DNA of 64,000 nt from an uncultured Trueperaceae bacterium (GCA_963799485.1 CAWCXJ010000008.1:256001-320000); one strand, 5' to 3'; numbered from the stretch's first letter, positions 4,053 to 62,967 are shown. Notes: generated by a model from the sequence alone, not told the origin. Program-made: numbers and translations.

Positions 4053-4964
4053 CTAGTCGAAGCTGATGAACGTTCCGCTTAGACCCGATTCGGCGACGTC
4101 GCCGGAGAGTTCTTCCGGACTGAGGAGCTTCCCGCCGGTTACGGCGACGAAGGCGGCCTCGAGCACATTCGTCGGCACACTTCGGCCCCCCAAGCGCGGC
4201 GTCGTTGTGACCAGGAGCGACGCCCCACGTTGCCGTAAAAGTTCGGCGTCGTTTTGCGTGGTCGTATTCGTCAGGATGATTTTGCCGTCCAGACGCTCCG
4301 GCAAATAGCGGCGGATAAAGTGCCAGTCTCCGGCGACGACGTCGGCCTCGCCGTAAATCCTTTCATAAAACGGGCTCAGCTTTCGGCCCTGCTCTTGTGC
4401 GCTGCCGGTTGGGTAGAGCAGACTGATAGGCAACTTTGTGATAACCGGCAGAAGCACCGCCGCCAGCATCCGCAGCTGACGAACGCCGTAAACGAGTTTG
4501 GGAATACCCAGCGCAAACGCCAGATCGCCGAAGGCGACCTTTGCGCCGGTTTGGGTTAAAGCTTTAGCCATCCCGAAACGGTCTACGGCTGAAACCATCA
4601 GCACTCTTTTGTTCTCGAGGGGTATTCGGTAGTTTAATTTTTCTACTACGACGCGCTCGAGGCTTCTCTTGAGCCCTGCCCCGCACACGACCGGCGTTGC
4701 CTTTGCCTGCGCCGCCAACCGCGCCCCCTGCCGCAGCGTATAACGCCTGTCGCCGACGTAAAAGTAAAGGTCGAGTCCGCCTAACCCAATGGCGTCCACC
4801 GGGCCGTGAACGCCCGTATCAAGCGCACGAATCAGCGCCGCCGCCCGCTTTACGTCAGCGTCTGTCCCAAGCCGCCGCACTTCGACCGCAACGCCTAAAA
4901 GGTTCAGGACTTCCAAAAAATCACGCTTGGAAGACCCCAAGGAGACGCTGACGACGTGTTTCAC
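4053..4964 (-). CDS. Conserved protein (family often annotated quinate 5-dehydrogenase-like), function uncertain
   Basis: VVSVSLGSSKRD, DAIGLGG, TTTPRLGGRS.PTNVLEA; leaderless GTG after TAAACT. Confidence 0.7.
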   Translation of the reverse strand: MKHVVSVSLGSSKRDFLEVLNLLGVAVEVRRLGTDADVKRAAALIRALDTGVHGPVDAIGLGGLDLYFYVGDRRYTLRQGARLAAQAKATPVVCGAGLKRSLERVVVEKLNYRIPLENKRVLMVSAVDRFGMAKALTQTGAKVAFGDLAFALGIPKLVYGVRQLRMLAAVLLPVITKLPISLLYPTGSAQEQGRKLSPFYERIYGEADVVAGDWHFIRRYLPERLDGKIILTNTTTQNDAELLRQRGASLLVTTTPRLGGRSVPTNVLEAAFVAVTGGKLLSPEELSGDVAESGLSGTFISFD

Positions 4965-5081
4965 GTAGTTGAGTTTACCCTAATGTGTAAAAGCGACAAG
5001 CTTGAGATTGGGTACGGCTCGCGGCAGTAGCGCCTACAGCTAACCTGGGTGACGTAATAAGTGAGACGCATAAGTAAAGCC

Positions 5082-5175
5082 CCGCCGGTTTTCAGCGGCA
5101 CCTGACGATCACCCCTTATGGCTGCTTCTTCCGACCTGACCAGGTTCGAGGGTCGCCACCGCGCTGAGCCGACGG
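5082..5175 (-). ncRNA. ffs: Signal recognition particle (4.5S) RNA
   Basis: Minus strand GAACCTGGTCAGGTCGGAAGAAGCAGCCATAAGG matches the domain IV consensus; closing stem ccgtcgg/ccggcgg. Confidence 0.9.
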
Positions 5176-5251
5176 AGCGAGCTCAAGCCTAGCACAACCG
5201 GATAAAAGGCTGCAAACAAGTACGCACATCTTGGAATGGCCCGCCAAGACT

Positions 5252-5278
5252 CTTTTTACGGTAAAAAGCAGCTATGCT
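5252..5278 (+). promoter_or_regulatory. Palindrome CTTTTTAC-G-GTAAAAAG plus -10 TATGCT of a leaderless promoter
   Basis: 8-bp inverted repeat at 5252-5268; TATGCT at 5273-5278, 7 nt before ATG 5286. Confidence 0.5.
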
Positions 5279-5285
5279 GGTGCGT

Positions 5286-5531
5286 ATGAAAAGCGAAACT
5301 TTAAGTCACTATCTGGGGCAGCCCGGTTTGCGCGAGCAGCTCGCGGGTGCTGAGGACGCGGTGGTCGGGATTGGACGCGATCCCGAAGACTCGAGGCAGA
5401 GCTGCATCGTGCTTTACGTGCCGCCGGAGTTTTCGCGCCCGTTACCTGAAACTGTCACATTAGGCGGCGAAACGGTGCGCGTCGTGCGGCGTGAACGCGG
5501 TGGTCCGCTGCGCGCCTACGCCGCCGAGTAA
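5286..5531 (+). CDS. Small protein resembling the N-terminal domain of the downstream protease
   Basis: VVGIG..CIVLYV..LPETVTLGG..VRVV..GPLRA pattern; 21 nt upstream of the protease. Confidence 0.65.
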   Translation: MKSETLSHYLGQPGLREQLAGAEDAVVGIGRDPEDSRQSCIVLYVPPEFSRPLPETVTLGGETVRVVRRERGGPLRAYAAE

Positions 5532-5552
5532 AATGCGTTCCGGGGGCACACT

Positions 5553-6491
5553 ATGACGAAGCTGTCGCACGACTTTGTAGACCTGCTCGCCGGGGTTCAG
5601 CTGCCGCCTGAGGTCAAGGCGGTCGGGGTCACGCGCCATAACGCTCAGGACGCGCTGCTCGTCGTTCTCCGGGAACGCGGGGTGCGGGCGTTCGGCGCTG
5701 AAACCATGCAAGACCTGTTTAGTAGCGTGTCGGGTTTGCCGCTGGTGATGCGCGAAGTTTCCGGCGAGTTGCGCGCCACCGGGCAGTTGCCGGTCGCGCA
5801 AAGTCAGGCGCTGACGCCTGAGCAAGAAGTTCTCGAGCCTGTCGTCCTCGGGGCGCAGGTGCAAAACGGCAGTGCCGACGAGCGTTTGGGCGGCTACGGT
5901 GTCGGGACGCTCGGTGCGTTTGCCCAAAATGCCGAGGGTCAAGCGGTTCTCCTAAGTAATAATCACGTCATCGCTGCTGAAAACGACGCCGAGGTCGGCG
6001 ACCTTGTCTTTCAAGCGCAGCGGGGGCGAGGGCGCGCCCTCGCAAAACTCTCGGCGTGGGTGCCGATTACGCTCGACGCCCCCAACCGTGTTGACATCGC
6101 CAGTGCGGTGATAGACGCCGACGCTGCGTTTGAAAACAGCTTTTTACCCCTCCGAAACCGCCCTGACCCGGTTGGCTTGGCTGCGCCTAGAATCGGGGCC
6201 AAGGTCTTCAAAGTCGGGCGCACGAGCGGCCTCACTTTCGGTTCGGTTACGGCGATTGCCGCGCGTGTTCCAGGTGTCGGCTACGGTATCGGCAGCGCCG
6301 CGTTTGAAAACAGTTTTATTATTGAAGGGCAAGGGGGCGGGACTTTCAGCGCCCCTGGTGACAGCGGCAGCGGCATCTACGATATGCGCGGTCGCTTGGT
6401 TGGGTTCTTGTATGCCGGGGACGGGACGATTACGCTCGCTTGTCCGGCAGGGGAGGCGCTCTCGGCTCTTTCCTCGAGCCTTCAGGTTTAA
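5553..6491 (+). CDS. Trypsin-like (S1, Nal1-like) serine protease without signal peptide
   Basis: GTLG, SNNHV (His), VDIA (Asp), KVGRTSGLT, GDSGS (Ser). Confidence 0.85.
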   Translation: MTKLSHDFVDLLAGVQLPPEVKAVGVTRHNAQDALLVVLRERGVRAFGAETMQDLFSSVSGLPLVMREVSGELRATGQLPVAQSQALTPEQEVLEPVVLGAQVQNGSADERLGGYGVGTLGAFAQNAEGQAVLLSNNHVIAAENDAEVGDLVFQAQRGRGRALAKLSAWVPITLDAPNRVDIASAVIDADAAFENSFLPLRNRPDPVGLAAPRIGAKVFKVGRTSGLTFGSVTAIAARVPGVGYGIGSAAFENSFIIEGQGGGTFSAPGDSGSGIYDMRGRLVGFLYAGDGTITLACPAGEALSALSSSLQV

Positions 6492-6637
6492 CTAGTGGCG
6501 CGTAACGAAACCCCTTATCCGGTAGCGCGCAGGCTCTTTTGCGAAGCTCTCGTCAGGTTTAGCGCCTGTGTTTTAGCTCGCGATACTGCTGCCGAAGGGC
6601 TACAGCCACACGCTAAGTACGGTGCTAGACTCTGTTT

Positions 6638-7786
6638 ATGAACCTGCTCACCAAAGCCGCGTCCGGAGAGCGGTTATCCCCCGAAGAAGCCGTCAAGCTC
6701 TACGACCTGCCGCTTTTCGACCTCGCTGCCGCCGCTCACGCCGTTCGGCAACAGCGCACCGACCCCGAGGTCGTGACTTACCTCATCGACCGCAACATCA
6801 ACTACTCGAACGTCTGTAACGTCGGTTGCGCCTTTTGCGGGTTTTACCGCACGCGCAATCAAGAGGGCGCGTACACGCTTTCGTTCGAAGACATCAGCGA
6901 CAAGATTTGGGAGCTCGAGGCCGTTCACGGCACCCGTATCCTGATGCAGGGCGGCGTCAATCAGTACCTACCTTTTAGCTGGTATCTGGATTTGATGCAG
7001 CACCTCAAAACGCGGCACCCGACGATTCGCGTCGAGGCATTTTCACCTGAAGAGATCAAAGGGATGGCGAAACTGACCGGCATGACAAGCGCCCAAGTTC
7101 TTGAAGAGCTGCAAGCTGCGGGCCTCGACGGACTTCCCGGCGGCGGCGGTGAGATGCTCGTAGACGCGGTGCGGCACGCGCGTCACATCTCACCGGCGCG
7201 TATTTCGTCGGATGACTGGATTCGCATCATGGGTGAAGCGCAAGAGCTGGGCCTTTACACGACCGCGACGATGGTTATCGGTTTCGGTGAGACGCCCGCG
7301 CAGCGCGTTGAGAGTATGCGCCGCGTCCGTGAGCAACAAGATATTGCCGCCGCCACCCACAGCAACGGTTTTTCGGCGTTTATCTCGTGGACGCTGCAGA
7401 CGGAGGGCGTCCGTGTGAGCGGCAAAGTACCCGGCGCAGGCGCACACGAATATCTACAAAACCTGGCGGTCAGCCGGATATTTCTTGACAATATGCCGAA
7501 CTTTCAAGCGTCATGGCCGACGATGGGCCATAAAATCGCGCAAACAGCGCTATTCTTCGGAGCCAACGACTACGGTTCGACGATGTTAGAAGAAAACGTC
7601 GTCTCACAAGCCGGGGCCAAACACCGACGCGTCAACGAACGTGAAATCATCCGGCAGATTACCGAAGCGGGCTTTAGGCCGGTGCAGCGCGGCAGTCTTT
7701 ACGAGACCATCCGGGTTCCCGACGCAGCGGCAATTTTAGCGGACAAACCGCAGATCGATTTTGGGGCGCTCAAGACCGCCTTCTAA
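6638..7786 (+). CDS. mqnC: Cyclic dehypoxanthine futalosine synthase (radical SAM)
   Basis: DRNINYSNVCNVGCAFC, LMQGG, QASW, GANDYGSTMLEENVV. Confidence 0.92.
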   Translation: MNLLTKAASGERLSPEEAVKLYDLPLFDLAAAAHAVRQQRTDPEVVTYLIDRNINYSNVCNVGCAFCGFYRTRNQEGAYTLSFEDISDKIWELEAVHGTRILMQGGVNQYLPFSWYLDLMQHLKTRHPTIRVEAFSPEEIKGMAKLTGMTSAQVLEELQAAGLDGLPGGGGEMLVDAVRHARHISPARISSDDWIRIMGEAQELGLYTTATMVIGFGETPAQRVESMRRVREQQDIAAATHSNGFSAFISWTLQTEGVRVSGKVPGAGAHEYLQNLAVSRIFLDNMPNFQASWPTMGHKIAQTALFFGANDYGSTMLEENVVSQAGAKHRRVNEREIIRQITEAGFRPVQRGSLYETIRVPDAAAILADKPQIDFGALKTAF

Positions 7787-7830
7787 AACCCTGTAATGGA
7801 CTGTTCTATACTGCGGTATGGGTACTCAAC

Positions 7831-8391
7831 ATGGGTGAAGCTGCACTAAAACTTAAACCGCTGTCGGTAGACGCGTATTTACAGCTCGAGGCGAGCAGCA
7901 AAGTTAAACACGAACTGGTAGATGGTCAGCTGTACGCTTTCGCCGGTGCTTCTGACAAACACAACCGCGTCGCAGGTAATATCTACTTCCGCATCCGTCA
8001 GAGCCTAAAAGCGGATTGCCGCGCGTATATAAGTGATATGAAGTTGCGGGTACAAGCTGAATTTGTAGACAAATTTTACTATCCCGACGTGATGGTGACG
8101 TGCAGCGAAAGCGATACGGGCGAGCTTTACAAAACTTCGCCGTCTCTGCTGGTCGAGGTGATGTCCCCGAGCACCGCGGGCGTTGACCGCCGTGAAAAGC
8201 TCATGGCTTACCAGGGTATACCGGAACTGCGCGACTACCTCATCGTCAGTGCGGATGAGCGGTATTTGGAGCGTTACCGCCGCGACGACACCGAGGGCTG
8301 GTGGTATCACGAGTACCGGCGAGACGGCACCGTAAAACTGCCTTATTTGGGGCTCAACCTGACGCTTGACGATATTTACGAAGGATTGTAG
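7831..8391 (+). CDS. Uma2 (DUF820) family putative endonuclease
   Basis: HELVDG, AGASDKH, YPDVMVTC, VEVMSPST, DRREK. Confidence 0.92.
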   Translation: MGEAALKLKPLSVDAYLQLEASSKVKHELVDGQLYAFAGASDKHNRVAGNIYFRIRQSLKADCRAYISDMKLRVQAEFVDKFYYPDVMVTCSESDTGELYKTSPSLLVEVMSPSTAGVDRREKLMAYQGIPELRDYLIVSADERYLERYRRDDTEGWWYHEYRRDGTVKLPYLGLNLTLDDIYEGL

Positions 8392-9546: not shown

Positions 9547-9679
9547 TTACCAAAACCTATACGGCGGTGAAAATGTCTGTTACGGTCTATTGTGATAGGA
9601 GTTCTTTGGTTCGCATAAACCTGAGCTTCTCTCTTTCTCTTCCCAGCTGTCAACTAGCATCCTTTGTAGTAATTTCTTT

Positions 9680-9983: not shown

Positions 9984-10170
9984 GGACTGCTACCCGACCC
10001 GTAAATGACCCTCGGCGAAAGCTGTTAAGCCGCCGTTTGGGTCAGCGTAGTACCGATCTTCTGCCACACCGAAATAATGCGCGGACAGACAGGCTACCGC
10101 ACGCGCGCGCAGGCTTGGTATACTCGTATGTTTACGGAGCAGGTGCGCCCTGCTTATCCAAGGAGGCACG

Positions 10171-13035
10171 TTGCAAAACCTTGTCATCCGCGGCGCTCGA
10201 GCACACAACCTCAAAAACGTCTCGACCACGCTTCCCAGAGACAGCTTTATCGTTTTTACCGGTGTGTCCGGTTCAGGCAAATCGACGCTCGCTTTCGATA
10301 CCATTTACGCCGAAGGGCAGCGCCGCTACGTTGAAAGTTTGTCGGCCTACGCGCGGCAGTTTTTAGGCTTGATGGACAAACCCGACGTCGACAGCATCGA
10401 AGGTTTATCGCCTGCTATCAGCATCGACCAGAAGACGACCTCGCACAATCCGCGTTCGACGGTCGGCACCGTCACCGAAATTCACGACTATTTGCGGCTG
10501 CTCTTTGCGCGTGCCGGAACACCGCACTGCCCGATTTGCGGGCGCGTGATTGAAAAACAGTCGGCCTCGGAAATCGTCGACCGGATGCTGGAGCGCTTTA
10601 GCGACCAGCGTGCGCTCGTGATCGCGCCGCTCGTCCGGGGACGCAAAGGTGAATATAAAAAGCTCTTTGAAGGGCTCAAAAAAGAAGGTTTTGCCCGCGT
10701 CCGAGTCGACGGTGAAGTCCAAACGCTCGACGAAGCTTTGAAGCTGACTCTCAAGAAGTACGAAAAACACGACATCGACATCGTCGTTGACCGCCTCAAG
10801 CTCAGCGAAAGCGACCGTTCACGGATTGCCGAATCGGTCGAGCTGGCCTTGCAAAAAGGTGAGGGCTTGATGCGGGTGTTTTTACCCGACAAAAATCAAG
10901 AAGAACTCTTTAGCGAGCGCTTCGCCTGCCCCGAACACGGGACGGTGTTAGAAGAACTCGAGCCCAGAGCGTTTTCGTTTAATTCGCCCTACGGCGCGTG
11001 CCCACACTGCACCGGCCTCGGCTACCGCTCCGAGTTCGACCCGGCGCTGATTATTCCCGACGACGAGCTGTCCATCGGACAAGGCACCATCGCACCGTGG
11101 AGCCAGGGACGCGGCGACGGGAACAAGGTCTTTTACTGGGACAGAATCAAGGCGCTCGCCGAGCATCTGGACTTCGATGTCCGCACCCCTTGGCAAGAGC
11201 TGCCGGAAAAGGTGCAGAAGACGCTCCTACGCGGCTCCCGTGAGCCCATCGAGGTCGTCTACAAACGCGGCGACCGCGAGACGATGCGCTTTAACGTCGA
11301 GTTTGAAGGCGTGATTCCCAACCTCGAGCGCCGCTTGCGCGAAGCCACCTCGGATTACGCTCGGGAGAAGCTCGAGGCGTTTATGTCGCTCGTTCCCTGC
11401 CCCAAATGCCACGGCACCCGCTACAAACCCGAGGTGTTGTCGGTGACGGTCGCTGAGCGCAACATTGCCGAGCTTTCGGGTATGACCGTTTTAGAAGCCA
11501 GGGCATTTTTTGCCGCGCTGAACCTGCCCGAACCGGGCGGAGCCATCGCCGCACCCATCATGCGCGAGGTCGGCGCACGGCTCGGGTTTTTGGAAAACGT
11601 CGGGCTCGACTATCTGACGCTCGACCGCAGCGCGAATACGCTCTCAGGCGGCGAGGCGCAGCGTATCCGGCTGGCGACGCAGGTCGGCAGCGGGCTTACC
11701 GGCGTGTTGTACGTTTTGGATGAGCCCTCTATCGGGTTGCACCCACGCGACAACGCGCGGCTCTTGCAAACGCTCCTCCACCTGCGCGATCTCGGCAATA
11801 CGCTCATCGTCGTCGAACACGACGAGGAAACCATGCGGGCCGCCGACTACCTCGTTGACTTGGGGCCGGGAGCCGGGGTTCACGGCGGCGAGATCATCGC
11901 CGAAGGGACGCCGGACGCGCTGATGCAAGACCCGAACTCGCTGACCGCAGCCTATTTGCGTGGGGACAAAAAGATCGAGGTACCGAGCAAGCGGCGGGGC
12001 GGCAGCGGCAAACGCATTAAGATTTTGGGCGCTTCTGAGCACAACCTGCAAAACGTCAGCGTCGAGATTCCGCTGGGGACGCTCACCTGTATTACCGGCG
12101 CGTCGGGCTCGGGCAAGTCCACACTCGTTCACCGTATCCTGCACGCGAGTTTGGCCAAAGAGCTGTACCGCGCCAAAGAAGTACCGGGCGTGCACAAGGC
12201 GATTCAAGGTACCGAAAACATCGACAAGGTGATCGAGATCGACCAGGGCCCGATTGGGCGCACGCCGCGCAGCAACCCGGCGACGTACACCGGGATATTC
12301 ACCGAAATCCGCGACCTCTACACCCGCGCACCCGAAGCCCGTAAACGCGGCTACAAAGCTGGACGGTTTTCATTCAACGTCAAAGGTGGACGCTGCGAAG
12401 CGTGTAAGGGCGACGGGACGGTTAAAGTCGAGATGTACTTTTTGCCCGACATCTACGTGCCGTGCGAAGTTTGTAAGGGGGCGCGTTACAACCGCGAAAC
12501 CCTGGAGGTCAAAATTCGCGGCAAGTCTATCGCCGACGTTCTTGGTATGACTGTCGATGAAGGGGTGGGGTTTTTCGAAAACATTCCCAACATCGCGCGT
12601 AAACTGCAGCTGATGCAAGACGTAGGGCTGGGGTATATCAAGATCGGACAACCGTCGCCGACGCTTTCGGGAGGCGAAGCGCAGCGCGTAAAACTCGCTT
12701 CAGAACTCGGCAAGCGCAGCACCGGCAAAACGCTCTACATTCTGGACGAACCGACCACCGGCCTGCACTTCGCCGATGTGCAGCGGCTTTTGGGGGTTTT
12801 GCAACGCCTCGTCGAAGGGGGCAACACCCTGGTCGTAATCGAGCATAATATGGACGTGATTAAAACCGCCGACTGGCTTATCGATCTGGGGCCGGACGGG
12901 GGCTCGAGAGGCGGCACCGTCGTCGCCGAAGGTACGCCTGAAACCGTCGCTGTTCACCCGACCTCCTCGACCGGCGAATACCTGCGGCAAATTCCCGAAA
13001 TCGAGGCGCGCCTCCCCGAGCTGGCTCCCGCATGA
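10171..13035 (+). CDS. uvrA: Excinuclease ABC subunit A
   Basis: GARAHNLKN, two Walker A motifs, Zn fingers, LSGGEAQR twice; AGGAGG RBS. Confidence 0.98.
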
Positions 13036-18290: not shown

Positions 18291-19208
18291 TCATAAAAAG
18301 AGCTGCCCTTCACCGACTCTTACGGCGACGCCGCCGACGGAGACCTGCACACCTTTTTCGGTTCGTTTCAGACGCACGAACAGCTCGCTTTTACGGCCCA
18401 TTTCAACGCCTTGGTGACTGGTGAATTCGGCGCTGTCACCTTGCAAGATGTCTGTATGCGCCGCTAAATATGCACCCAGCGGCCCGTGCGCGCTACCGGT
18501 GGCAGGGTCTTCGTAAACGCCGAGGGCAGCGCCCAACATCCGCGCACGAATATCAGACTCAGGCGCGTGAGGGGTAAAAACGAAAACCACAGGGCGATTA
18601 TCGGGTAGTAGCTGGGAGAGTTTAGGTAGCGATACCTGCGCCCGTGCAAGTGCGTCCAGCGAAACGACCGGAACCAACAAGAACGGATTTCCGGCACTGC
18701 CGAGCTGGACGGGCAAGTCGGGCTCGAGCTCCCCCACTCCCAAACCCAAAGCCGCTGCAACCTGCGCCTTGTCGAACGTCTCCAAAAGCTCCGGCACACC
18801 CTGATTCATCCACACCCGTTTTAAGGTGCCGCCTTTACGCTCTAGGGTCATCTGCACAGGGCCGACGTTTAACGTCAGCGTTACCTTGTCCTGCCCCGTA
18901 AAATGGCCCTGCTGCGCGAGCGCAAAGACCGTACCGACGCTCGGGTGTCCCGCCACCGGTAATTCTTGCGTCGGCGTAAAGTAGCGGGCGCGGACTGCGG
19001 TTTTTACGGCAGGTTTTACGGTGGGTTTTACGGTGCTTTCTGCGGGTAACACGAAACTCGTCTCAGAGAGATTGAACTCGTTGGCGATGCGCTGCATCTG
19101 TTCGCCACTTAAACCGTCGGCATCCGGGATAACGGCTAACGGGTTGCCGTAAAAAGGTCGCGTCGTAAATACGTCCCACAGCTCATAAAGTAGGATGTCA
19201 GGTGTCAT
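18291..19208 (-). CDS. PhzF family isomerase
   Basis: DVFT..GNPLAV, NLSET, AGHP, EDPATGSA, QGVEMGR; start at ATG 19208 after TAGACT. Confidence 0.92.
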   Translation of the reverse strand: MTPDILLYELWDVFTTRPFYGNPLAVIPDADGLSGEQMQRIANEFNLSETSFVLPAESTVKPTVKPAVKTAVRARYFTPTQELPVAGHPSVGTVFALAQQGHFTGQDKVTLTLNVGPVQMTLERKGGTLKRVWMNQGVPELLETFDKAQVAAALGLGVGELEPDLPVQLGSAGNPFLLVPVVSLDALARAQVSLPKLSQLLPDNRPVVFVFTPHAPESDIRARMLGAALGVYEDPATGSAHGPLGAYLAAHTDILQGDSAEFTSHQGVEMGRKSELFVRLKRTEKGVQVSVGGVAVRVGEGQLFL

Positions 19209-19250
19209 TGGGGCAAGTCTAACCGGAAAGAGTCGTGCTAGTTTGGGCCT

Positions 19251-20336
19251 ATGATTCATCCTCTACATGAACGCTACGCCAAACTCCTCGTCGGCTACTG
19301 CACTGAAGTTCAATCCGGTGAGAATGTGCTCTTGAACCTCGAGAGTCCGGCGTTGCCGCTGGCCAGGGCGCTCACCCGCGAAGTCCTTAAAGCAGGCGGG
19401 ATTCCGCACCTGCGCGTGACTTATCCTGAACTCACTGCTGACATTTTGGAGCTTGCCACAGACACTTATCTGGAGTCTGAAGCGGGGCTCGAGCGCTCCG
19501 AAATCAAACACACCGACGCCTGGATTCGCGTCGCTGCGCCGAGCAACACCCGCACGCTGCAAGGCTCCGACAAAACCAAACTCGGACGGTTACAAAAACG
19601 GCTCCGGGACGTGTCGAATATCCGGATTCAGGAAACCCGGTGGTGCGGCACGCTCTTTCCGACCCCGGCGGGCGCACAAGACGCCGACATGAGTTTAGAC
19701 GACTACGAACGCTTCGTTTACGGCGCGATGTTCTTGTTTGAACCTGACCCGGTAGCCGAGTGGAAGAAGCTGCACGAGTTTCAGGCAGAGCTGATTGAAA
19801 GGCTTCAGGGCGCAAAAACGGTGCGGATTCAGGCCGACGGTACCGACCTCACACTCAGCGTCGGTGGGCGCACCTGGGTCAATTCGGACGGACACCGCAA
19901 TATGCCTTCGGGCGAGGTGTTTACGGGGCCGCTCGAGACCAGCGCCGAAGGCACCATTCGTTTTGACATCCCGAGCGCGGTTCAGGGAACGCTCGTCAGA
20001 GATGCCCAACTGACGTTCAAGGAAGGTCAAGTTGTCTCTGCAAAAGCCGACGAAGGCGATGAGCTGTTGCAAGCGCAGCTTACGACCGACCCCGGCGCAA
20101 GGTTTCTGGGTGAACTCGGAATCGGTACCAACACCCGAATTCAGCGCCCGACCAAAAGCATCTTGTTCGATGAAAAAATCGGTGGCACGGTGCACCTCGC
20201 GCTCGGGCAGTCGTACCGGGAAACAGGCGGGACGAACACGTCGGCAATTCACTGGGATTTGATCTGTGATTTGCGGCGAGGCGGCGTAATCACACTCGAC
20301 GATAGAGTGTTTCAAGAAAATGGGCAGTTTGTTTAG
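19251..20336 (+). CDS. Aminopeptidase, M29 (AmpS/AmpT) family
   Basis: NMPSGEVFT, GELGIG, LFDEK, HLALG, SAIHWD. Confidence 0.93.
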   Translation: MIHPLHERYAKLLVGYCTEVQSGENVLLNLESPALPLARALTREVLKAGGIPHLRVTYPELTADILELATDTYLESEAGLERSEIKHTDAWIRVAAPSNTRTLQGSDKTKLGRLQKRLRDVSNIRIQETRWCGTLFPTPAGAQDADMSLDDYERFVYGAMFLFEPDPVAEWKKLHEFQAELIERLQGAKTVRIQADGTDLTLSVGGRTWVNSDGHRNMPSGEVFTGPLETSAEGTIRFDIPSAVQGTLVRDAQLTFKEGQVVSAKADEGDELLQAQLTTDPGARFLGELGIGTNTRIQRPTKSILFDEKIGGTVHLALGQSYRETGGTNTSAIHWDLICDLRRGGVITLDDRVFQENGQFV

Positions 20337-29736: not shown

Positions 29737-31323
29737 ATGGCGCTGACGCGCAACCGACCCCTAGCCCGTAAAACCCGTCCCCCCCTCGTCGTCTTGCTGC
29801 CGAGCCTCGTAGTCGCGGTCGCGGTACTGCTGCCGCTCAGCTACCTGCTCTTCCGGGCGGCGGGCGCGAGCGGCGGGTTTTGGGACTATCTCTTCCGGAC
29901 ACGCAGCCTCACAGCGCTCTGGACAACCCTGTCGCTGGCCTTTTCGGTGACGACCTTGACGCTCCTTATCGCCTTGCCGGTTGCGTGGCTGACGCTCCGC
30001 ACAAACCTGGCAGGGCGGCGTATCTGGTTTGTCCTGAGCATGCTGCCGCTCGTGATTCCGACCTACGTGGGCAGCTTCGCGCTGATTTCGGCGTTTGCCA
30101 CCGGTGGACTCCTGGATCAACTCGCCGGGGTGTCGCTGCCGGTTTACGGCTTCGGCGGGGCGCTGGTCGTGCTGACACTCTTTACCTACCCGTATATGCT
30201 GCTCGCTCTCCGCGCCGGCTTGCGCGGCCTCGACCCGAGTCTGGAAGAGGCGGCGCGGAGCCTCGGTTACAGCCCGCTCAAAACCTTTTTCGCGGTAACG
30301 CTGCCGCACCTGCGCCCGGCGATTGCCGCGGGCGCGCTTTTAGTGTCGCTCTACGTGATTTCAGACTTCGGCGCAGTGGCGATGCTGCGCCTCGAGACCC
30401 TCACCCGCGGCGTCTACGTGCAGTATCAAAGCTCGTTCAACCGCTCGAACGCGGCGGCGCTCGGGCTGGTTTTGGTCGGTCTCACAGGCGCGGTGATGGC
30501 CTTTGACCTGCTCGTGCGCGGGCGCTCGCGGCTCGTGCGGACGGGTTCAGGGGCGGCGCGGCCCCTGCCGCTGCAGACGTTGGGGCGGTGGCAAGTCCCG
30601 GCGCAGCTCTTTTTAGGGTTGCTCGTTGCGGTGGCGCTGGTTGCGCCTCTTTCGGTTATCGGGGTATGGCTGGGGCGCGGTCTGGTCGGAGGGTCGGGGG
30701 TGGGGATAGGGCTGTCTCCGCTTTTTAACGCTCTGCGCGTTTCGCTTTTTGCGGCGCTCACCTCGACCCTGGCGGCGTTTCCGGTGGCGGTTTTGAGCGT
30801 GCGCTATCCCTCTAAACTGAGCGCCCTCTTGGAGCGCCTTACCTACGTCGGCTACGCCTTGCCGGGGCTTGTGGTGGCTTTGGCACTCGTTTTTTTCGGG
30901 GCGCGCTACGTCCCCGCGCTCTACCAGACCGAGGCTTTGCTGATTTTCGCCTACACCCTCCTTTTTTTGCCGCAAGCTCTGGGTAACATTCGCACCAGCC
31001 TTCTCAAGGTCAACCCGCATTTAGAAGAAGCGGCTAGGGGTCTGGGCCGAAACTCGTGGGGTGTGCTGACGCAGGTCACGGTGCCGCTCGTTCGTAGCGG
31101 CGTCTTAACCGGGGCGGCGCTGGTCTTTTTAACCACGATGAAAGAGCTGCCCGCAACCCTGCTCTTGGGGCCGACCGGGTTTAACACCCTGGCGACGCGC
31201 ATCTGGTCTTGGACGGTCGAGGCGTTTTTTGCGCAGGCTGCGCCCTACTGTTTTGTCCTTATCGCTGCGTCGTCGGTGTCTCTGGCGCTGCTGTTGGCGC
31301 ACGAACCGGACGAAACTGCGTAG
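29737..31323 (+). CDS. fbpB: Fe(III) ABC transporter permease (FbpB-like)
   Basis: Two EEAAR(S/G)LG EAA loops, SDFG, MKELPATLLL. Confidence 0.9.
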   Translation: MALTRNRPLARKTRPPLVVLLPSLVVAVAVLLPLSYLLFRAAGASGGFWDYLFRTRSLTALWTTLSLAFSVTTLTLLIALPVAWLTLRTNLAGRRIWFVLSMLPLVIPTYVGSFALISAFATGGLLDQLAGVSLPVYGFGGALVVLTLFTYPYMLLALRAGLRGLDPSLEEAARSLGYSPLKTFFAVTLPHLRPAIAAGALLVSLYVISDFGAVAMLRLETLTRGVYVQYQSSFNRSNAAALGLVLVGLTGAVMAFDLLVRGRSRLVRTGSGAARPLPLQTLGRWQVPAQLFLGLLVAVALVAPLSVIGVWLGRGLVGGSGVGIGLSPLFNALRVSLFAALTSTLAAFPVAVLSVRYPSKLSALLERLTYVGYALPGLVVALALVFFGARYVPALYQTEALLIFAYTLLFLPQALGNIRTSLLKVNPHLEEAARGLGRNSWGVLTQVTVPLVRSGVLTGAALVFLTTMKELPATLLLGPTGFNTLATRIWSWTVEAFFAQAAPYCFVLIAASSVSLALLLAHEPDETA

Positions 31324-31678: not shown

Positions 31679-31697
31679 CGCGCCGTAAAAATGAACT

Positions 31698-31729: not shown

Positions 31730-33652
31730 TTACCGCACTTCACTCCCGCTCGCAATATCCCGGTCCAGCGCCGAAATACTCAGGTTTCCTTCAGCGTCCT
31801 CTGCTGCCAAAATCATCCCCTGTGACTCCACGCCGCGCAGTTTTACGGGTTTTAGGTTCGCCACGATGATGACCTTTTTACCCGCCAACTGCCCTGGGTC
31901 GTACCACTTTTTAATGCCGGAGACGATGGTGCGCTCTTCGCTGCCCAGCTTAACGGACAAAACCAGCAACTTGTCGGCTTTGGGGTGCGCTTCGGCTTTG
32001 ATGACCTCGGCGACGCGGAACTCGAGCCTGGCAAAATCATCGATCGTCACTTCGGGTTTGTGTTCCAAGGGTTCCTCTTTCATTTCCAGACTTTCGTTGA
32101 GCGCGGCTAAGTCTACGCGGGGAAAAAGCGGGCTACCGAGTTTTGTTTGCGTTCCGGTGGTCGTCAAACCCCACTGCGCCGCGTCAGCTAGCGTAAAGGT
32201 TCCGCTAAGCCCGAGCTGCGCCCGCAGCTCTTCGGCCTTGTTCGGAATAACGGGCGAGAGGAGGATGCTCGAGCAGCGCAGCGCCTCCAGGCAGGTATAA
32301 AGCACCGTATCCAAACGTTTTGCGTTTGCCTCATCTTTGGCGAGCGTCCACGGTTGGGTTTCGGCGATGTATTTGTTCGCCTTGCGCACCGCTTCCAGCA
32401 CGCTCTCGATGGCCCGGTCGAACTGCAAACCATCGACCATCTTTGTGATTCTGTTCGGTAAAGAGATAAAGGCGTCTCTGAGCGCTTCGTCGATGGGCTC
32501 TAACGTTCCCGTTTCAGGCACGGTGCCGGAACGGTATTTGCCGAGCATCCCCAAAGTTCGGTTGAGCAGATTGCCGAGGTCGTTGGCGAGGTCGGAGTTG
32601 ATGCGTTCAGCCAGCCCGACTTCACTAAAACTTGCGTCGAGGCCGAAGGTCATATCGCGTAAAAGGTAGTAACGGAAGGCGTCGTTGCCGTACTTGTCTT
32701 TGAGGTCTAGGGGCCGCACCACGTTCCCCTTCGACTTGCTCATCTTGCCGCCGTCTACGAGCCAGTAGCCGTGAACATTCAGGTGTTGATAGATAGGTAA
32801 GCCCGCCGATTTGAGCATGGTCGGCCAGAAGACGCCGTGCGGTTTCAAGATGTCTTTGGCGATGAAATGTTCCACGTGCGGCCAGTAGTGGTCTTCGGTG
32901 CCGTGACTTTTGAGCGCGGAGTAGTAGTTGATGAGCGCGTCGAACCAGACATAGGTGACGTGGTTTTCATCCCACGGCAGCGGGATGCCCCACGGAACGC
33001 GGGCTCTCGGGCGGCTGATGGACAAGTCGCCGATAGGCTCCCGTAAAATCCCCAAAACCTCGTTGCGGTAGCGTTCGGGCCGGATAAAGTCGGGGTTGTC
33101 TTCGATGTATTCGCGGAGCCACGGGCGGTACTTTTCCATCCGGAAGAAATAATTTTCTTCGCTGCGGTACTCCAACACGATGTCGTGTTGCGGGCACTTA
33201 CCGTCAACGAGTTCTTTTTCGGTGTAGTAGCGTTCGCACCCCGTACAGTAAAGGCCGCCGTACTCGCCAAAAATAATGTCGCCCTTGTCGTAAACGGTTT
33301 GCAGAATCTCGCTGACGACTTTTTTATGACGCTCTTCGGTGGTGCGGATAAACTCGTCGTAAGAAATGCCCAAACTGTCCCAGACGTTGCGAAACTTGCC
33401 TGAGATTTGGTCGGTGTATTCTTGCGGCGTCATTCCCGAGGCTTTCGCTACCTGGTAGATACGTTCGCCGTGTTCGTCGGTGCCGGTCAAAAAGTAGGTG
33501 TCGTCGCCTCTGAGCCGGTGAAAACGGGCGGCAACATCAACCAGCGTGGTGGTGTAGGCGTGCCCGATGTGCGGTTCGGCGTTGACGTAAAAGATGGGCG
33601 TGGTGGCGTAGTAGATATTTTTATCAGATGCGGGTTTATCAGGTTGCGTCAT
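31730..33652 (-). CDS. metG: Methionine--tRNA ligase with C-terminal tRNA-binding domain
   Basis: HIGH, KMSKS, GTDEHG, YVWFDAL, Trbp111-like C-terminus. Confidence 0.97.
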   Translation of the reverse strand: MTQPDKPASDKNIYYATTPIFYVNAEPHIGHAYTTTLVDVAARFHRLRGDDTYFLTGTDEHGERIYQVAKASGMTPQEYTDQISGKFRNVWDSLGISYDEFIRTTEERHKKVVSEILQTVYDKGDIIFGEYGGLYCTGCERYYTEKELVDGKCPQHDIVLEYRSEENYFFRMEKYRPWLREYIEDNPDFIRPERYRNEVLGILREPIGDLSISRPRARVPWGIPLPWDENHVTYVWFDALINYYSALKSHGTEDHYWPHVEHFIAKDILKPHGVFWPTMLKSAGLPIYQHLNVHGYWLVDGGKMSKSKGNVVRPLDLKDKYGNDAFRYYLLRDMTFGLDASFSEVGLAERINSDLANDLGNLLNRTLGMLGKYRSGTVPETGTLEPIDEALRDAFISLPNRITKMVDGLQFDRAIESVLEAVRKANKYIAETQPWTLAKDEANAKRLDTVLYTCLEALRCSSILLSPVIPNKAEELRAQLGLSGTFTLADAAQWGLTTTGTQTKLGSPLFPRVDLAALNESLEMKEEPLEHKPEVTIDDFARLEFRVAEVIKAEAHPKADKLLVLSVKLGSEERTIVSGIKKWYDPGQLAGKKVIIVANLKPVKLRGVESQGMILAAEDAEGNLSISALDRDIASGSEVR

Positions 33653-54021: not shown

Positions 54022-54064
54022 AGCAGCATCCTAGCGTAGTGGCGTCCGCACAGCTATACAGCAG

Positions 54065-54904: not shown

Positions 54905-54922
54905 AGTTTCCTTTCAAGCAAG

Positions 54923-58614: not shown

Positions 58615-58665
58615 ACTGTGCCCCCACCGCTCTCACCCGCACAACCCACCCCGGTACAATGACCT

Positions 58666-60156
58666 GTGAAGAAGAAGATCATCATTATCGGCAGCGGCTT
58701 CGGCGCACTCGGGGCCGCTGCTCGCCTGCTCGCCGCCGGACACGACGTAACCATGTTCGAAAAACGCGACAAGCTCGGGGGCCGCGCCTACGTCTACGAG
58801 CTGGGCGGCTTCAAGTTCGACGGCGGCCCGACGATCGTCACCGCGCCGTTTATGTTCGACGACATCTTCGAGGCGGCCGGAAAGCGCCGTGAAGACTATT
58901 TCGAGCTGGTCAAGTGCGACCCGTTCTACCGGATTTTCGACGCCGACGGGCGGCCCTTCGACTACAACGACGACGAGATGTTTACCCTCCGCGAGATTCA
59001 CGAGCGCAACCCAAAAGACAAAGAGGGCTACCTGCGCTTTATCCGTTCGACCAAGGCGATTTTTCAAAAAGGGTTTGTGGAGCTTGCCGATAAGCCTTTT
59101 TTGAGCGTGTGGGACATGCTCAAGGTCGCGCCCGACTTGGTACGTTTGCAGTCGTACAAGAGCGTGTACAAATACGCGTCGGGCTTTGTTGAGGACGAAT
59201 TCTTGCGGAAAGTCTTTTCGTTTCACCCGCTTTTGGTCGGTGGCAATCCGTTCGATACAACCTCGATTTACGCGATGATTCATTACCTCGAGCGCGAGTG
59301 GGGCGTGTGGTACGCCCTCGGCGGCACCGGCGCGATTGTCAAAGGTCTGGGGCGGCTGATTACCGAACTCGGCGGCGAAATCTACTTAAACGCCGAAGTT
59401 GACGAAATTGTCGTAGACAAGGGCGAAGGTGAGCGGCGCGTGAAAGGCGTGCGGATGCAAGACGGCAGTGTTCGCACCGCCGACGCCGTAATCTCCAACG
59501 CCGACGTCGCCTACACCTACCGCAGCATGATTGCGCCTGAACACCGCCGTAAATACACCGACAAAAAAATTGAGAACATGAAGTACGCGATGTCGCTCTT
59601 TGTCATCTATTTCGGCACCAAAAAACGCTACCTCGACACCAAGCTCAAGCACCACAACATCATTCTGGGCGAGCGCTACGAGGAGCTGCTCCAAGACATC
59701 TTTAACAAACATCACGTCGCCGAGGACTTTTCCTTGTACCTGCATATGCCGACCTACACCGACCCGAGCATGGCCCCGGAGGGCTGCGAGTCGTTTTACG
59801 TCTTGTCGCCGGTGCCGCACTTGGGTTCGGGGACGGACTGGAAGGTTGCCGCCAAACCCTACCGCGACCTCATCATGCAGTTCTTAGAGGACAACTACCT
59901 GCCGGATTTGCAGGAAAACATCGTGGTCGAACACATGATCGACCCGCTGCATTTTCAGGACACGCTCAACTCGTATCAGGGGTCGGCGTTTAGCGTGCAA
60001 CCTCTTTTGACGCAGTCGGCGTGGTTCCGGCCGCACAACCGCAGCGAGGAGTTCAGCAACCTCTACTTTGTGGGTGCGGGGACGCATCCGGGGGCGGGGT
60101 TGCCGGGGGTGTTGTCGAGTTCGAAGATCGTTGAAAACCTTATCGGGGCGGCCTAA
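58666..60156 (+). CDS. crtI: Phytoene desaturase (CrtI family)
   Basis: [42 protein letters not shown]. Confidence 0.9.
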
Positions 60157-60295
60157 AATCGTCCCCGTAAAATGCTGGTTTGTAGGCTGAAAGAATACGT
60201 GAACGGCTGAGACGTACTATCAATAGGGCGACGCGTCGCGTTCGCAGTGTGTTTTTGCCGTACATCTTTTACGGGGCGCAGGTGAGGAGAAAACG

Positions 60296-60679
60296 ATGGA
60301 AAGCCGTGCGTTTAGACGTGACTTGAAAGCTTTACGGCGTGAGTTGGAGGAACTCCAGGAAACCCTGGAAGACTTGGGCGAATCGGGCAGTGAGGCCGCT
60401 AAAAGCGCCTTAAACGAGATGAAAGGGAGTCTCGAGGCCAAACTCAGAGACGTTTTCAGCTCGGTCAAGGACACCTCTCAGGGAACGGAAAGCCGGGGCC
60501 AGAGCTTTTTCCGGGACGCCGAACAAGGGGGTAAAAGGTTTACAAAACGCGCTGAATACCGGGGTAAAGGCGCATTTTACGAGGCCCGGCCCGGCAATGC
60601 GACTCGGGGTACCGGGGCGGCGTCTCTCGTGGGTTTCGGTCTCGGGTTTGCGGTGGGCTGGCTGTTGGCTCGGCGCTAA
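60296..60679 (+). CDS. DUF883/ElaB-like tail-anchored protein
   Basis: Coiled-coil N-terminus and C-terminal TM G.GFAVGWLLARR; GAGGAG RBS. Confidence 0.65.
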   Translation: MESRAFRRDLKALRRELEELQETLEDLGESGSEAAKSALNEMKGSLEAKLRDVFSSVKDTSQGTESRGQSFFRDAEQGGKRFTKRAEYRGKGAFYEARPGNATRGTGAASLVGFGLGFAVGWLLARR

Positions 60680-60772
60680 GCGTTTACCGGTTTCAAAGAG
60701 ACCACCGTAAAACGGTCTCTTTTTTGGCAGTCGGCTGCCGCTCTGCTCGTTCGCTACGTTTTACGGTGGCTG

Positions 60773-61096
60773 TTAAAACACCGCTTGCAGCGCCCAGAGG
60801 GCAATCATGCCTGCTAAAAGCGTCCAGATGATGCTTTTGGTGTACCACGCCACGACGCTCGCCACGAGTCCGGCCATGAGTTTTTCGTTGCTGAGGGTGA
60901 GCTCGAGCGCACCCTCCCGAAACACAATCGCCGGCACGACAATCGCCGGAAGCACCGCCACCGGCACGAACCGGAGCGCCCGCTGCACCACCGGCGGCAA
61001 CCTGAGGCGATCTGACAACGCGATAAACGACACGCGCAGCGCAAAGGTAATAAGTCCCATCGCCAGCATCGTCCACCAGAGTGTTGTTCCGCTCAT
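60773..61096 (-). CDS. AzlD-family membrane protein
   Basis: TFALRVSF..L..VP.AVL.A. Confidence 0.85.
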   Translation of the reverse strand: MSGTTLWWTMLAMGLITFALRVSFIALSDRLRLPPVVQRALRFVPVAVLPAIVVPAIVFREGALELTLSNEKLMAGLVASVVAWYTKSIIWTLLAGMIALWALQAVF

Positions 61097-61788
61097 GTAG
61101 TCGCCCGTTGCTGCACGGCTTCAACGAGTGTGCCCGTTCCGATGCCGACGAGCGCCGCGACGATGAGCGCGAGGTTAAACGGTAAAGCGTGGGCAACGAC
61201 GACGGTGACGCCGGCAGCAAGCGCCGCTGCGACCGCCGCGCGGTCAACCAGAACGGGAAAAATCAGCGCCATAAAAATCAGCGGAATGGCGAACTCTAAA
61301 GACCAGCCTTCCGGCACCTGCGACCCGACAAAAACGCCGACCGCCGTGGTCAGCATCCACACCGCCCAAATCGGCGCGGCAAAACCCAGATAGTAGAGAC
61401 TTTTGTAGGGCATGTCGGGCTCGGCGACGAAGCGGCGGATAGAGAGCGCGTAAGCCTGATCGGTCATAAGGTACGCCATGAGGCTCTTGGGTCCCACCGA
61501 AAAACGCGCCAGGTAGGGGGCAATCGATGCGCTGTACATCATAAAGCGCAAATTGATAAAAAACGTCGTCAGGAGGATGACGAACAGGGGCGCGCCAGAG
61601 GCGATAAGTTGTAACCCTGCGAGCTGCGACGCGCCCGCAAAAACAAGCGCCGACATCGCAATCGCCTGAACATCAGGCAACCCGACGCTCGCCGCGCTGA
61701 CACCGGCTACGAGTCCGAAAGGGATAATACCAAGCATCACGGGTAAACCGACCTGAAAGCCGGAGAAGAGGGTCGCTCGAGGAGACAC
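61093..61788 (-). CDS. AzlC-family branched-chain amino acid exporter
   Basis: FAGASQ, INLR..MYS, MTDQAYA. Confidence 0.9.
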   Translation of the reverse strand: MSPRATLFSGFQVGLPVMLGIIPFGLVAGVSAASVGLPDVQAIAMSALVFAGASQLAGLQLIASGAPLFVILLTTFFINLRFMMYSASIAPYLARFSVGPKSLMAYLMTDQAYALSIRRFVAEPDMPYKSLYYLGFAAPIWAVWMLTTAVGVFVGSQVPEGWSLEFAIPLIFMALIFPVLVDRAAVAAALAAGVTVVVAHALPFNLALIVAALVGIGTGTLVEAVQQRATT

Positions 61789-61818
61789 AGGGTTTATTCT
61801 ACGGGACGCTAAGCCGTA

Positions 61819-62967
61819 CTAAAGCCCACGCATGGTAAATGCCCGTGCAAACGGGTGCTTGAGCGGGGTGTGCAAGATGCTCCAGGCGAAGGTGTCACGG
61901 AGGACGGCGAGCGGTGTGGCGCGGCCCATCACGGTATTGAACTCGGCGCGGCAGGCGGCGCTCTTTGCCGTGTTACGGTGCGCGTCGTAGTCGCCAAACC
62001 CTTCACCTCGCGCTAAAGCGTCCGCCAGTCGCCACGCGCCCAGCCAGCCGAGGTTCATCCCCTGTCCGCCGATTGGACTCAGCACATGTGCGGCGTCGCC
62101 GACGAAGGCTACCCGGCCCACCGTAAAACGTTCGGCTAGAAAACGCTGGACGCCGAAGCTCGACGGCGTGGTATTCGTCTCTGCAGGTACACCGAGGCGT
62201 ACACTGCGGCGTATATTGCGACCAAGTCGCTCATCGACTAGATTGGCAACGAGTTCGTAAGTCGGTTTTCGAACGAACTGCGGCGTTTTGACGACCCAGC
62301 GCCGTACCCCGCCGGGGAGCGGAAACGACTCGACCAGCCCCGCGTGCGTAAAGTAAAGCTCTGCGTCGCCGACCAACCCGGTCGTATCGGCAAAGTCGCC
62401 CATAACATAAGCATCGGGATAGCGTTTGCCGAGAAACGGAACGCCCAAGGTCTGCCGGACGAAACTGTCTTTGCCGTCGGCGGCGACCAAAAAACGGCTC
62501 CGCAGGGCTTCACCGGATTTTAGGGTTACGGTAACACCGTTCGGGTCAGGCTCGAGCCCCGCCACTTCAGCCCCGGATAAACGGGCGCACGGTGCGAGCT
62601 CGTCTAATCGCGCTGCTAGCAGCGCTTCGGTACGTGGTTGCGGCAGCGTGAGGATAAACGGGTAGGGTGCAGGACACGAAGAAAAGAGCAGCGTTCCCAA
62701 ATGCTGCGTCCCGCGTTTGGTGCCGGTGTAGGCGTGACCGCGCGTGACCTGAACGCCTGCTTGAATGAATTTTTCCGCCAGGCCGAGGACGGCAAGACGC
62801 TCCAAAGCGGGAGGATGCACGCCGATGGCGCGTGAATGTAGTGACGGGGTGGGGTAGCGCTCGAGCACCCTCACCCTCACCCCGAGCTGCGCCAGACGGC
62901 AGCTCAAAAAGAGGCCGACTGCACCTCCGCCAACGACAAAGACATCGGCGTCGAACGTTTCAGTCAT
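61819..62967 (-). CDS. FAD-dependent monooxygenase
   Basis: VVGGG.VG, AADG, GDAAHVLSPIGGQGMNLG. Confidence 0.9.
   Translation of the reverse strand: MTETFDADVFVVGGGAVGLFLSCRLAQLGVRVRVLERYPTPSLHSRAIGVHPPALERLAVLGLAEKFIQAGVQVTRGHAYTGTKRGTQHLGTLLFSSCPAPYPFILTLPQPRTEALLAARLDELAPCARLSGAEVAGLEPDPNGVTVTLKSGEALRSRFLVAADGKDSFVRQTLGVPFLGKRYPDAYVMGDFADTTGLVGDAELYFTHAGLVESFPLPGGVRRWVVKTPQFVRKPTYELVANLVDERLGRNIRRSVRLGVPAETNTTPSSFGVQRFLAERFTVGRVAFVGDAAHVLSPIGGQGMNLGWLGAWRLADALARGEGFGDYDAHRNTAKSAACRAEFNTVMGRATPLAVLRDTFAWSILHTPLKHPFARAFTMRGL

Follow-up and report, generated by a model that had tools for sequence, protein, structure and literature searches.

The DNA described here is a window of 64,000 nucleotides (nt), G000:C8:256001-320000, from an assembly of 3,655,195 bp in 15 contigs with 59% GC (G000), and our subject is the short non-palindromic word CCGTAAA, with its reverse complement TTTACGG, which recurs along it. 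Among named records, the nearest to the UvrA encoded in the window (10171-13035) were a Trueperaceae metagenome-assembled genome (MAG, 77%), a Deinococcaceae MAG (69%) and Meiothermus (68%), so that the organism is a Trueperaceae-like member of Deinococcota. An earlier note on this DNA had counted about 70 exact copies of the word, about 30 on one strand and about 40 on the other; we found 71 (31 on the plus and 40 on the minus strand), the first at 4233 and the last at 62127, whereas 100 dinucleotide-preserving shuffles of the window gave 10.50 ± 3.33 copies and never more than 19. The zero-order expectation of 5-6 copies that the note had quoted is arithmetically correct. We conclude from the analyses below that CCGTAAA is a real and, as far as our searches show, undescribed hyper-abundant asymmetric word of one clade, and that the phenomenon is of a known kind. 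The sites of the window to which we refer are the following, with ORF standing for open reading frame.

4233..62127, 31 copies on the plus and 40 on the minus strand: span of all 71 exact copies, against 10.5 ± 3.3 expected from dinucleotide shuffles
10131..10137, minus strand: copy 34 nt upstream of the uvrA start (10171)
19002..19034, minus strand: in-frame insertion of 33 nt in a PhzF-family gene, from the sequence and an alignment with five congeners
31683..31689, plus strand: copy in the spacer between convergent ORFs (29737-31323, plus strand; metG, 31730-33652, minus strand)
60165..60171, plus strand: copy 9 nt past the stop of a phytoene-desaturase-family (crtI-like) ORF, 58666-60156
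60702..60713, plus strand: left arm of a 12-nt inverted pair, CCACCGTAAAAC, from sequence and folding
60757..60768, minus strand: right arm of the inverted pair, GTTTTACGGTGG on the plus strand, between convergent ORFs, from sequence and folding

The individual sites that the earlier note had singled out were present. The in-frame triple tandem in phzF lies at 19003-19033, in a PhzF-family gene (18291-19259, minus strand), where three tandem 12-nt units, ACC GTA AAA CCx, each bear the word; the insertion encodes TVKPTVKPAVK and was seen in G000 only, the orthologues of all five congeners being without it. The 12-nt inverted pair between convergent genes was found at 60702-60713 and 60757-60768, and the minimum-energy fold of the region (-37.6 kcal/mol, z -2.67) pairs both arms; the left arm is at once the loop of a local hairpin, GAGACC...GGTCTC, after which comes TTTTTT. 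The copies said to stand right after a stop codon at 60165 and in a promoter region at 10131 were likewise there, at the distances listed above.

Over the whole of G000 the 7-mer occurs 3,274 times (1,667 forward and 1,607 reverse), or 0.9 per kb. When all 8-mers of the genome were ranked by observed over zero-order expected counts, CCGTAAAA/TTTTACGG came first at 23-fold, and the commonest 10-mer by raw count was CGCCGTAAAA, found 540 times on both strands where by our own arithmetic about 6 copies would be expected, an excess of about 90-fold over zero order. The word family was also among the top outliers by maximal-order Markov z (CCGTAA 26, CCGTAAA 12, TTTACGG 13.6 and CCGTAAAA 8.5). A logo drawn over all 3,274 copies reads c-G-CCGTAAA-a and holds zero information past ±2 nt, so that CCGTAAA is not a fragment of a longer repeat, and repeats of the repetitive extragenic palindromic (REP) or miniature inverted-repeat transposable element (MITE) type, or longer ones, were ruled out. 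It is the core of c-G-CCGTAAA-a, and its fullest form is CGCCGTAAAA. Its abundance is that of known uptake sequences, with hundreds to thousands of copies, about one per kb, far above what composition would give.

The abundance of the word is not a matter of coding. Our own gene calls (ORFs of at least 80 amino acids, scored by codon log-likelihood) gave 3,161 genes over 83% of the genome, with starts that are unreliable and an intergenic fraction that still holds unrecognised small genes; with these calls, the density of CCGTAAA in G000 came to 0.87 per kb for coding DNA and 0.96 per kb for the DNA between genes. Within genes it occurred 526 and 397 times in the stop-free sense frames, 555, 666 and 495 times in the antisense frames, and once in the sense frame that reads TAA. 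In the 100 nt past stop codons the word was about 1.4-fold denser, and CCG TAA A forms the end of 34 genes. The 2,645 copies in genes compare with 711 ± 19 under a within-gene shuffle of synonymous codons (3.7-fold, and 5.6-fold for the 8-mer), with 518 when the order of codons was shuffled (5.1-fold) and with 921 under a codon-pair Markov null that keeps the protein (2.9-fold), a null under which the 10-mer was expected 66.5 times and observed 436 times. In the 615 kb of intergenic DNA we found 590 copies against Markov expectations of 102 (order 1), 164 (order 3) and 491 (order 5), and the 10-mer 101 times against 3.8, 5.8 and 34, respectively. The earlier note had thought that the enrichment might be lost under a dicodon shuffle or explained by a shorter core such as GTAAA; the counts just given dispose of the former, and as to the latter, observed over expected counts under the synonymous shuffle climb stepwise to 8-10 nt, from TAAA (1.48) through GTAAA (1.72), CGTAAA (2.55) and CCGTAAA (3.72) to CCGTAAAA (5.56), so that the shorter core was ruled out. 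Single-mismatch variants of the 8-mer ranged from 0.6 to 2.5 on the same scale, and up to 3.8 at the soft last position.

The choice of codons tells the same story, and here too the note's remark that copies use several frames and codons that are usually rare was borne out. All five stop-free frames were enriched, by 1.8 to 20.1 over the synonymous shuffle, with the maximum in the frame that requires the rare codon TTA. Valine between xCC and AAx is written GTA in 66% of cases against 12% in the genes of the genome overall, leucine between xTT and CGG is written TTA in 77% against 7%, and arginine between xxC and AAA is written CGT in 56% against 18%. Of 11,824 amino-acid triplets able to encode the word, 2,645 (22%) use it, and in the xTT TAC GGx frame ([F/L/I/V]-Y-G contexts) it is realised in 77%. 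Amino-acid identity at word codons is near the background (0.70 against 0.745 in the congener G002, 0.85 against 0.86 in G001 and 0.87 against 0.87 in G005), so that the word is fitted in mostly by synonymous choice. That a codon, dicodon or peptide-level artefact makes the word is an idea to which we give practically no credence: common codons do serve in some frames, as in TTT ACG GCG and xTT TAC GGC, but the intergenic density equals the coding density, the enrichment persists when synonymous codons or the order of codons are shuffled and under the codon-pair null, and it is strongest (20-fold) just where the rare TTA is needed. We regard this artefact as refuted. That CCGTAAA acts on the DNA itself, as the note had supposed, is strongly supported by the equal genic and intergenic density, the spread over frames and the synonymous and codon-pair nulls.

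The word is confined to close relatives. We counted the 10-mer, forward and reverse, in 41 genomes, with the reversed pattern as control:

G000: 540 copies, control 24
G005: 435 copies, control 17
G001: 196 copies, control 34
G003: 25 copies, control 17
G004: 16 copies, control 15
G002: 21 copies, control 5
G008 (another genus): 49 copies, control 21
G022 (another genus): 31 copies, control 4

In the other family and order genomes among the 41 the counts were near their controls. Per Mb, the three word-rich sister species have about 148, 99 and 41 copies and the remaining congeners about 4-7. UvrA identity to G000 is 98% in G005, 94% in G001, 92% in G003, 90% in G004 and 86% in G002, and the 10-mer load thus falls with distance from G000. 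In samples of the genomes, CCGTAAA itself stood at 0.79 per kb in G005 (56.9% GC), 0.52 in G001 (56.9% GC), 0.15 in G002 (68.0% GC), 0.11 in G003 (61.7% GC, 130 kb) and 0.15 in G004 (62.2% GC, 33 kb). G003 and G004 are of similar GC yet have near-baseline counts, so that GC content alone does not produce the word, and an origin as a by-product of GC content was ruled out. The load is therefore restricted to one clade, G000 and its two nearest congeners, G005 and G001. A second asymmetric word was sought in samples of 20-80 kb from five other genera of the family, which could miss one, and none stood out; the only word that did was the palindrome GCTCGAGC.

Within this clade the sites are conserved more often than 7-mers in general. 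Alignment of whole regions by BLASTN yielded only 21-30 kb of matches per 400-kb sample of a congener, synteny being poor, and we worked instead with codon alignments made from the best tblastn match of G000 genes in the 400-kb samples, taken with no reciprocal check. These gave 196 aligned genes for G005 (third-position identity 0.63), 214 for G001 (0.59) and 199 for G002 (0.50), and the following conservation of sites:

G000 to G005: word sites 46%, all 7-mers 29%
G005 to G000: word sites 50%, all 7-mers 29%
G000 to G001: word sites 41%, all 7-mers 25%
G001 to G000: word sites 63%, all 7-mers 25%
G000 to G002: word sites 4%, all 7-mers 14%

Conservation within the clade, at 41-63% against 25-29% for all 7-mers, is thus beyond background, as it is for words of the type of HIP1 (highly iterated palindrome 1) of cyanobacteria. 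Ranked among some 1,600 words with at least 40 occurrences, CCGTAAA was 3rd in the direction G001 to G000 and 103rd-122nd in three other directions; CTCGAGC was likewise near the top of the ranking. At the orthologous positions G002 has mostly CCGTAGA, CCGCAAG or CCGCAAA.

Sites are also gained. In 40 G000 genes with orthologues in both the G005 and the G001 samples, 11 sites were shared by all three genomes, 10 by G000 and G005, 4 by G000 and G001 and 1 by G005 and G001, and 14 were found in G000 only, 13 in G005 only and 6 in G001 only. In this small sample, parsimony applied with no formal model counts about 27 lineage-specific gains against 5 losses, and the accumulation of CCGTAAA appears still to be going on. 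New copies also arise through duplication. There are 66 clusters genome-wide of same-strand copies at most 24 nt apart, several of which are exact tandem duplications, and among 115 exact duplications whose units measure 10-14 nt, 9 bear the word in both copies, where a rough expectation is about 1.3; none of the same 115 bears CTCGAG in both copies.

Some DNA in the same assembly is poor in the word. Two related contigs, C2 (88 kb; 87,954 bp) and C3 (52.6 kb; 52,597 bp), have 0.25 and 0.27 CCGTAAA per kb, respectively. They encode a serine recombinase, an S24 repressor-like peptidase, a RepB primase, DnaB-type helicases, a phage capsid protein and C5-methyltransferases and also carry an ORF of 2,199 amino acids, and from this content we consider them phage-like. 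The longest stretch free of the word, C4:217359-241697 (24 kb, 66% GC), has a normal density of CTCGAG and encodes cyclopropane-fatty-acid synthase-like, glucodextranase, glucose-6-phosphate dehydrogenase, 6-phosphogluconate dehydrogenase, cytochrome b and multicopper oxidase proteins; it was probably acquired from a high-GC relative. In G005, the region C8:1600000-1800000 has the 10-mer just 3 times in each orientation, where the neighbouring 200-kb bins have it 5-20 times per strand, and may also be an acquired region. CCGTAAA is in this respect a sensitive marker of resident as against recently acquired DNA in these genomes.

Forward and reverse copies are evenly mixed. On each large contig of G000 the two orientations balance (361/349 on C6, 272/248 on C7 and 230/225 on C13, for example), and the word's preference for one strand was unrelated to GC skew in 63 windows of 50 kb (rho -0.09), although the skew is too tiny to map replichores. 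There was a weak relation to gene orientation (rho -0.31), which is expected from the forbidden TAA frame. In the first 1.8 Mb of the 4.02-Mb contig of G005 the 10-mer occurs 92 times forward and 93 times reverse, and a tally of their positions comes to 38:51 within the first Mb and 54:42 over the 0.8 Mb that follow, ratios that are far from those of Chi or of the FtsK-orienting polar sequences (KOPS). The orientations of the word are thus equal, without polarity, as in uptake sequences (1,667/1,607 in G000, with the replichores themselves unmapped), and the absence of a Chi- or KOPS-type strand bias that the earlier note had counted on is likewise strongly supported, by the contig balance, the GC-skew comparison and the G005 counts.

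Considering these observations jointly, it is strongly supported that some process favours word-bearing DNA irrespective of strand, frame or coding status. The force on CCGTAAA is heritable in one clade, adds copies and protects old ones, and phage DNA and recent acquisitions have so far escaped it. We know of only one mechanism, the uptake-bias drive of the DNA uptake sequences (DUS) of Neisseriaceae and the uptake signal sequences (USS) of Pasteurellaceae, that yields an asymmetric word at about one per kb without polarity, and because the genes for transformation are present as well, we rank first, if tentatively, the possibility that a molecular drive of this kind, linked to transformation, maintains CCGTAAA. 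The competence machinery, or a step just after uptake, would prefer word-bearing fragments; word-bearing alleles would then replace word-free ones by homologous recombination, and the resident chromosome would fill with the word while incoming phage and foreign DNA would not. The link of the word to DNA uptake or recombination is one that we infer from the likeness to these systems. Like CCGTAAA, the DUS and USS are short, non-palindromic words that occur about once per kb on both strands without replichore skew, lie in genes in several frames, are conserved at orthologous sites and are depleted in mobile DNA, and their hosts, like G000, encode competence genes. In G000 these include ComEC, DprA, a PilQ-type secretin and a ComEA-type HHH protein that adjoins comEC; such transformation machinery indicates capability only. 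The DUS core also contains GCCGT, which may be coincidence, and its cognate receptor is the minor pilin ComP.

Several points weigh against a transformation-linked drive. ComEC is encoded in all six congeneric genomes, the word-poor ones included. To our knowledge Thermus and Deinococcus take up DNA without any known sequence preference. In the literature on Deinococcus and Truepera we found no such uptake sequence or over-represented word, and for these organisms the literature searched gave no uptake or transformation data; a paper on transformation of D. radiodurans names uptake sequences only in its reference list (PMC11784314). The word is soft, only 540 of the 1,547 copies of CCGTAAAA having the CG prefix and single-mismatch variants reaching the values given above, and its enrichment (23-fold for the 8-mer and about 90-fold for the 10-mer over zero order) is softer than that of DUS and USS. 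Unlike these it shows no excess of inverted pairs at terminators, any uptake preference for it being putative, and here the analogy that the earlier note had drawn with DUS fails genome-wide, since neighbouring copies at most 100 nt apart comprise 88 convergent, 83 divergent and 257 same-orientation pairs. Even spacing, another supposed likeness to uptake sequences, does not hold either, since the copies form clusters (coefficient of variation 1.34). Spacers have clearly more USS and DUS than genes have, whereas the spacer density of CCGTAAA barely exceeds the coding density. The word is also narrower in its distribution (three of six species of one genus), graded in its load, and found in a different phylum, Deinococcota.

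Among the other explanations, one that we consider rather unlikely, if far from negligible, is an origin of the HIP1 type, in which a modification or repair activity that is sequence-specific would turn near-cognates into the word and shield the copies already present, or in which the word has the same genome-wide role as HIP1. Elhai's model for the cyanobacterial word GCGATCGC reportedly works in this way, by converting near-cognates and protecting the copies that exist, and a 2024 preprint is said to tie HIP1 to transformation efficiency. HIP1 and the alternative HIPs share with CCGTAAA that they are hyper-abundant 8-mers in coding and non-coding DNA, conserved, variable between lineages and of debated function. 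In its favour, the same genome carries a hyper-abundant palindrome, GCTCGAGC, which is the commonest 8-mer of G000 (6.4-fold over the synonymous shuffle) and the closer analogue of the HIPs there, and both CCGTAAA and CTCGAG occur in coding and non-coding DNA and are conserved in position, as one paper reports for HIP1 (PMC5861425). Moreover, methyltransferase genes are many more in the word-rich clade. In a scan of the six genomes for PF00145, PF01555, PF02384, PF07669 and PF02086, PF02384 matched 6 times in G000, 10 times in G005 and 11 times in G001 against 2, 2 and 3 times in the other three congeners, and matches to PF00145 and PF01555 were confined to the first three. Among the neighbours of the word, transitions in the CCG part were the lowest, or within 0.05 of the lowest, at each of three positions. 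However, HIPs are palindromes tied to cognate methyltransferases according to a second paper, in which neither CTCGAG nor Deinococcus is mentioned (PMC4390886), whereas CCGTAAA is asymmetric and the depletion of its neighbours is weak (0.6-0.9 at best), unlike that expected of a strong converting activity. Neither a Vsr-family gene nor a PglZ gene, of bacteriophage exclusion (BREX) systems, was found in the six genomes, nor was a Dam-type enzyme common to G000, G005 and G001, and none of the G000 methyltransferases that we followed up is shared by exactly these three. The C5-methyltransferases of G000 sit on the phage contigs; the 979-aa type IIL restriction-modification protein of the MmeI family (G000:C5:165410-168350) has only partial matches in other genomes, at 31-49% identity, with no orthologue in G005 or G001; and the 1,084-aa N6/N4 methyltransferase, which lies in a defence-type island (G000:C4:99001-111000) with an SNF2 helicase, a PIN protein, a ResIII/SWI2-SNF2 helicase and a WYL regulator, is absent from G005 and split in G001. 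Two further methyltransferases belong to type I restriction-modification systems, the targets of which are bipartite.

We think it improbable that the word is bound by an abundant protein of the chromosome (a nucleoid-associated or condensin-loading one, for example) or is a structural element of the DNA (a CG step followed by an A-tract), kept by selection at about one per kb. Conserved sites that are still gained would fit such a role, as would the general favour for A-tracts in G000 (AAAA is 3.9-fold over zero order), of which the word is the preferred 5' flank: CCGT precedes AAAA 1,547 times, the next-best prefix 731 times and the median prefix 167 times. No candidate protein was identified, though, the spacing is uneven, congeners of similar GC manage without the word, and it is not obvious how a required density would lead to 77% saturation of one frame or to a triple tandem in an enzyme. 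A slightly lower probability still goes to a neutral by-product of context-dependent mutation bias during a drift of the clade from high GC to AT. The outgroup G002 has 68% GC against 57-59% in the word-rich clade, its bases at the sites are GC-richer (CCGTAGA, CCGCAAG and CCGCAAA), so that GC-to-AT transitions would make the word, and amino-acid identity at word codons is about that of the background (0.70/0.745 for G002, equal for G005). Yet G003 and G004 have nearly the GC of G000 with 0.11-0.15 copies per kb, the sites are conserved at 0.45-0.63 when the medians for other AT-rich 7-mers are about 0.27-0.30, word-bearing duplications are kept preferentially, and a dependence on 7-10 bases of context is without mutational precedent known to us. 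Least probable among these, and unlikely, is a recombination signal like Chi, or some other polar signal (KOPS, for instance), that a translocating helicase-nuclease would read. Chi, KOPS and the related architecture imparting sequences (AIMS) are, like CCGTAAA, over-represented non-palindromic 5-8-mers of chromosomal DNA; the word, at 7-8 nt, is moreover depleted in phage DNA, and all six congeneric genomes encode a UvrD-helicase/PD-(D/E)XK nuclease fusion of about 950 amino acids. Chi and KOPS/AIMS are strongly co-oriented with replication, though, and CCGTAAA is without such skew, both at the scale of contigs and across the 1.8 Mb of G005, nor does its strand bias follow GC skew in the 63 windows, where the skew is weak and the replichores unmapped. 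In addition, RecC was not found in G000, whose single fusion has no adjoining AddB-like gene, and the word-poor congeners possess the same helicase-nuclease.

Other words of these genomes are also unusual in frequency. The palindrome CTCGAG (fullest form GCTCGAGC) has 7,252 sites in G000, about 2 per kb, which is 6.2-fold over zero order and 3.5-fold over the synonymous shuffle, with every frame enriched and orthologous sites conserved. It ranks first or close to first among the words of all six congeners and of samples from five other genera of the family, at 42-62% GC (its abundance was seen in G000, G001-G006, G008, G012, G021, G022, L006 and L013), and stands at 1.6 per kb in a 13-kb Meiothermus locus and 0.04 per kb in a Deinococcaceae locus. 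By this analogy CTCGAG looks like a family-wide counterpart of cyanobacterial HIP1; G002 has few recognisable DNA methyltransferases. TTTAAA is all but completely avoided in the genes of G000 (24 copies against 922 expected) and likewise in G005 and G001, but not in G002 or G003, so that its avoidance co-occurs with the CCGTAAA load. G000 also has hardly any GTTAAC, GGATCC, GGCGCC, CCGCGG, GCATGC or GGACC-type words, and the avoidance of TTTAAA and of these words is presumably restriction avoidance. A third enriched family in G000 comprises TCTAAAA/TTTTAGA and CTAAAA words, with 676 copies in genes, 5.4-fold over the synonymous shuffle. The idea that TCTAAA and TTTACG words are mutated TTTAAA was not supported, since in a small sample 25 TTTAAA sites of G002 orthologues match varied words in G000, and TCTAAA sites of G000 align mostly to TCCAAA or TCGAG in G002. 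In the 400-kb sample of G001 (G001:C9:2710001-3110000, loci L106-L125), 10-mers of the GTTTCAATCCTCA type occur 18-19 times and may belong to an array of clustered regularly interspaced short palindromic repeats (CRISPR) or to another repeat. Finally, ACCTCTT is 2.5-3.9-fold over its reversed control in the six genomes of the genus and about 3-4-fold in G012 and G022, but is not hyper-abundant in any of the 41 genomes, the maximum being 1,092 in G001.

As far as we know, an understanding of hyper-abundant "self" words exists for just two families of bacteria, those with DUS and with USS, and HIP1 in cyanobacteria is unexplained. Deinococcota are known for natural competence and extreme DNA repair. 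If a transformation-linked drive does maintain CCGTAAA, uptake sequences may have arisen here a third time independently, for the first time outside Proteobacteria, and be caught while still spreading, which we put forward as a possibility but a doubtful one; considering that gains outnumber losses, the receptor and the birth of uptake specificity could then be traced by comparing six genomes of one genus. The word is young, asymmetric and graded within that genus, and the word-free congeners of similar GC are built-in controls. Its asymmetry, its phylum and its graded youth bring within practical reach the questions of how words of this sort originate and what protein reads them, and constructs furnished with CCGTAAA could ease genetic access to this group, should the word be a tag for uptake or recombination.

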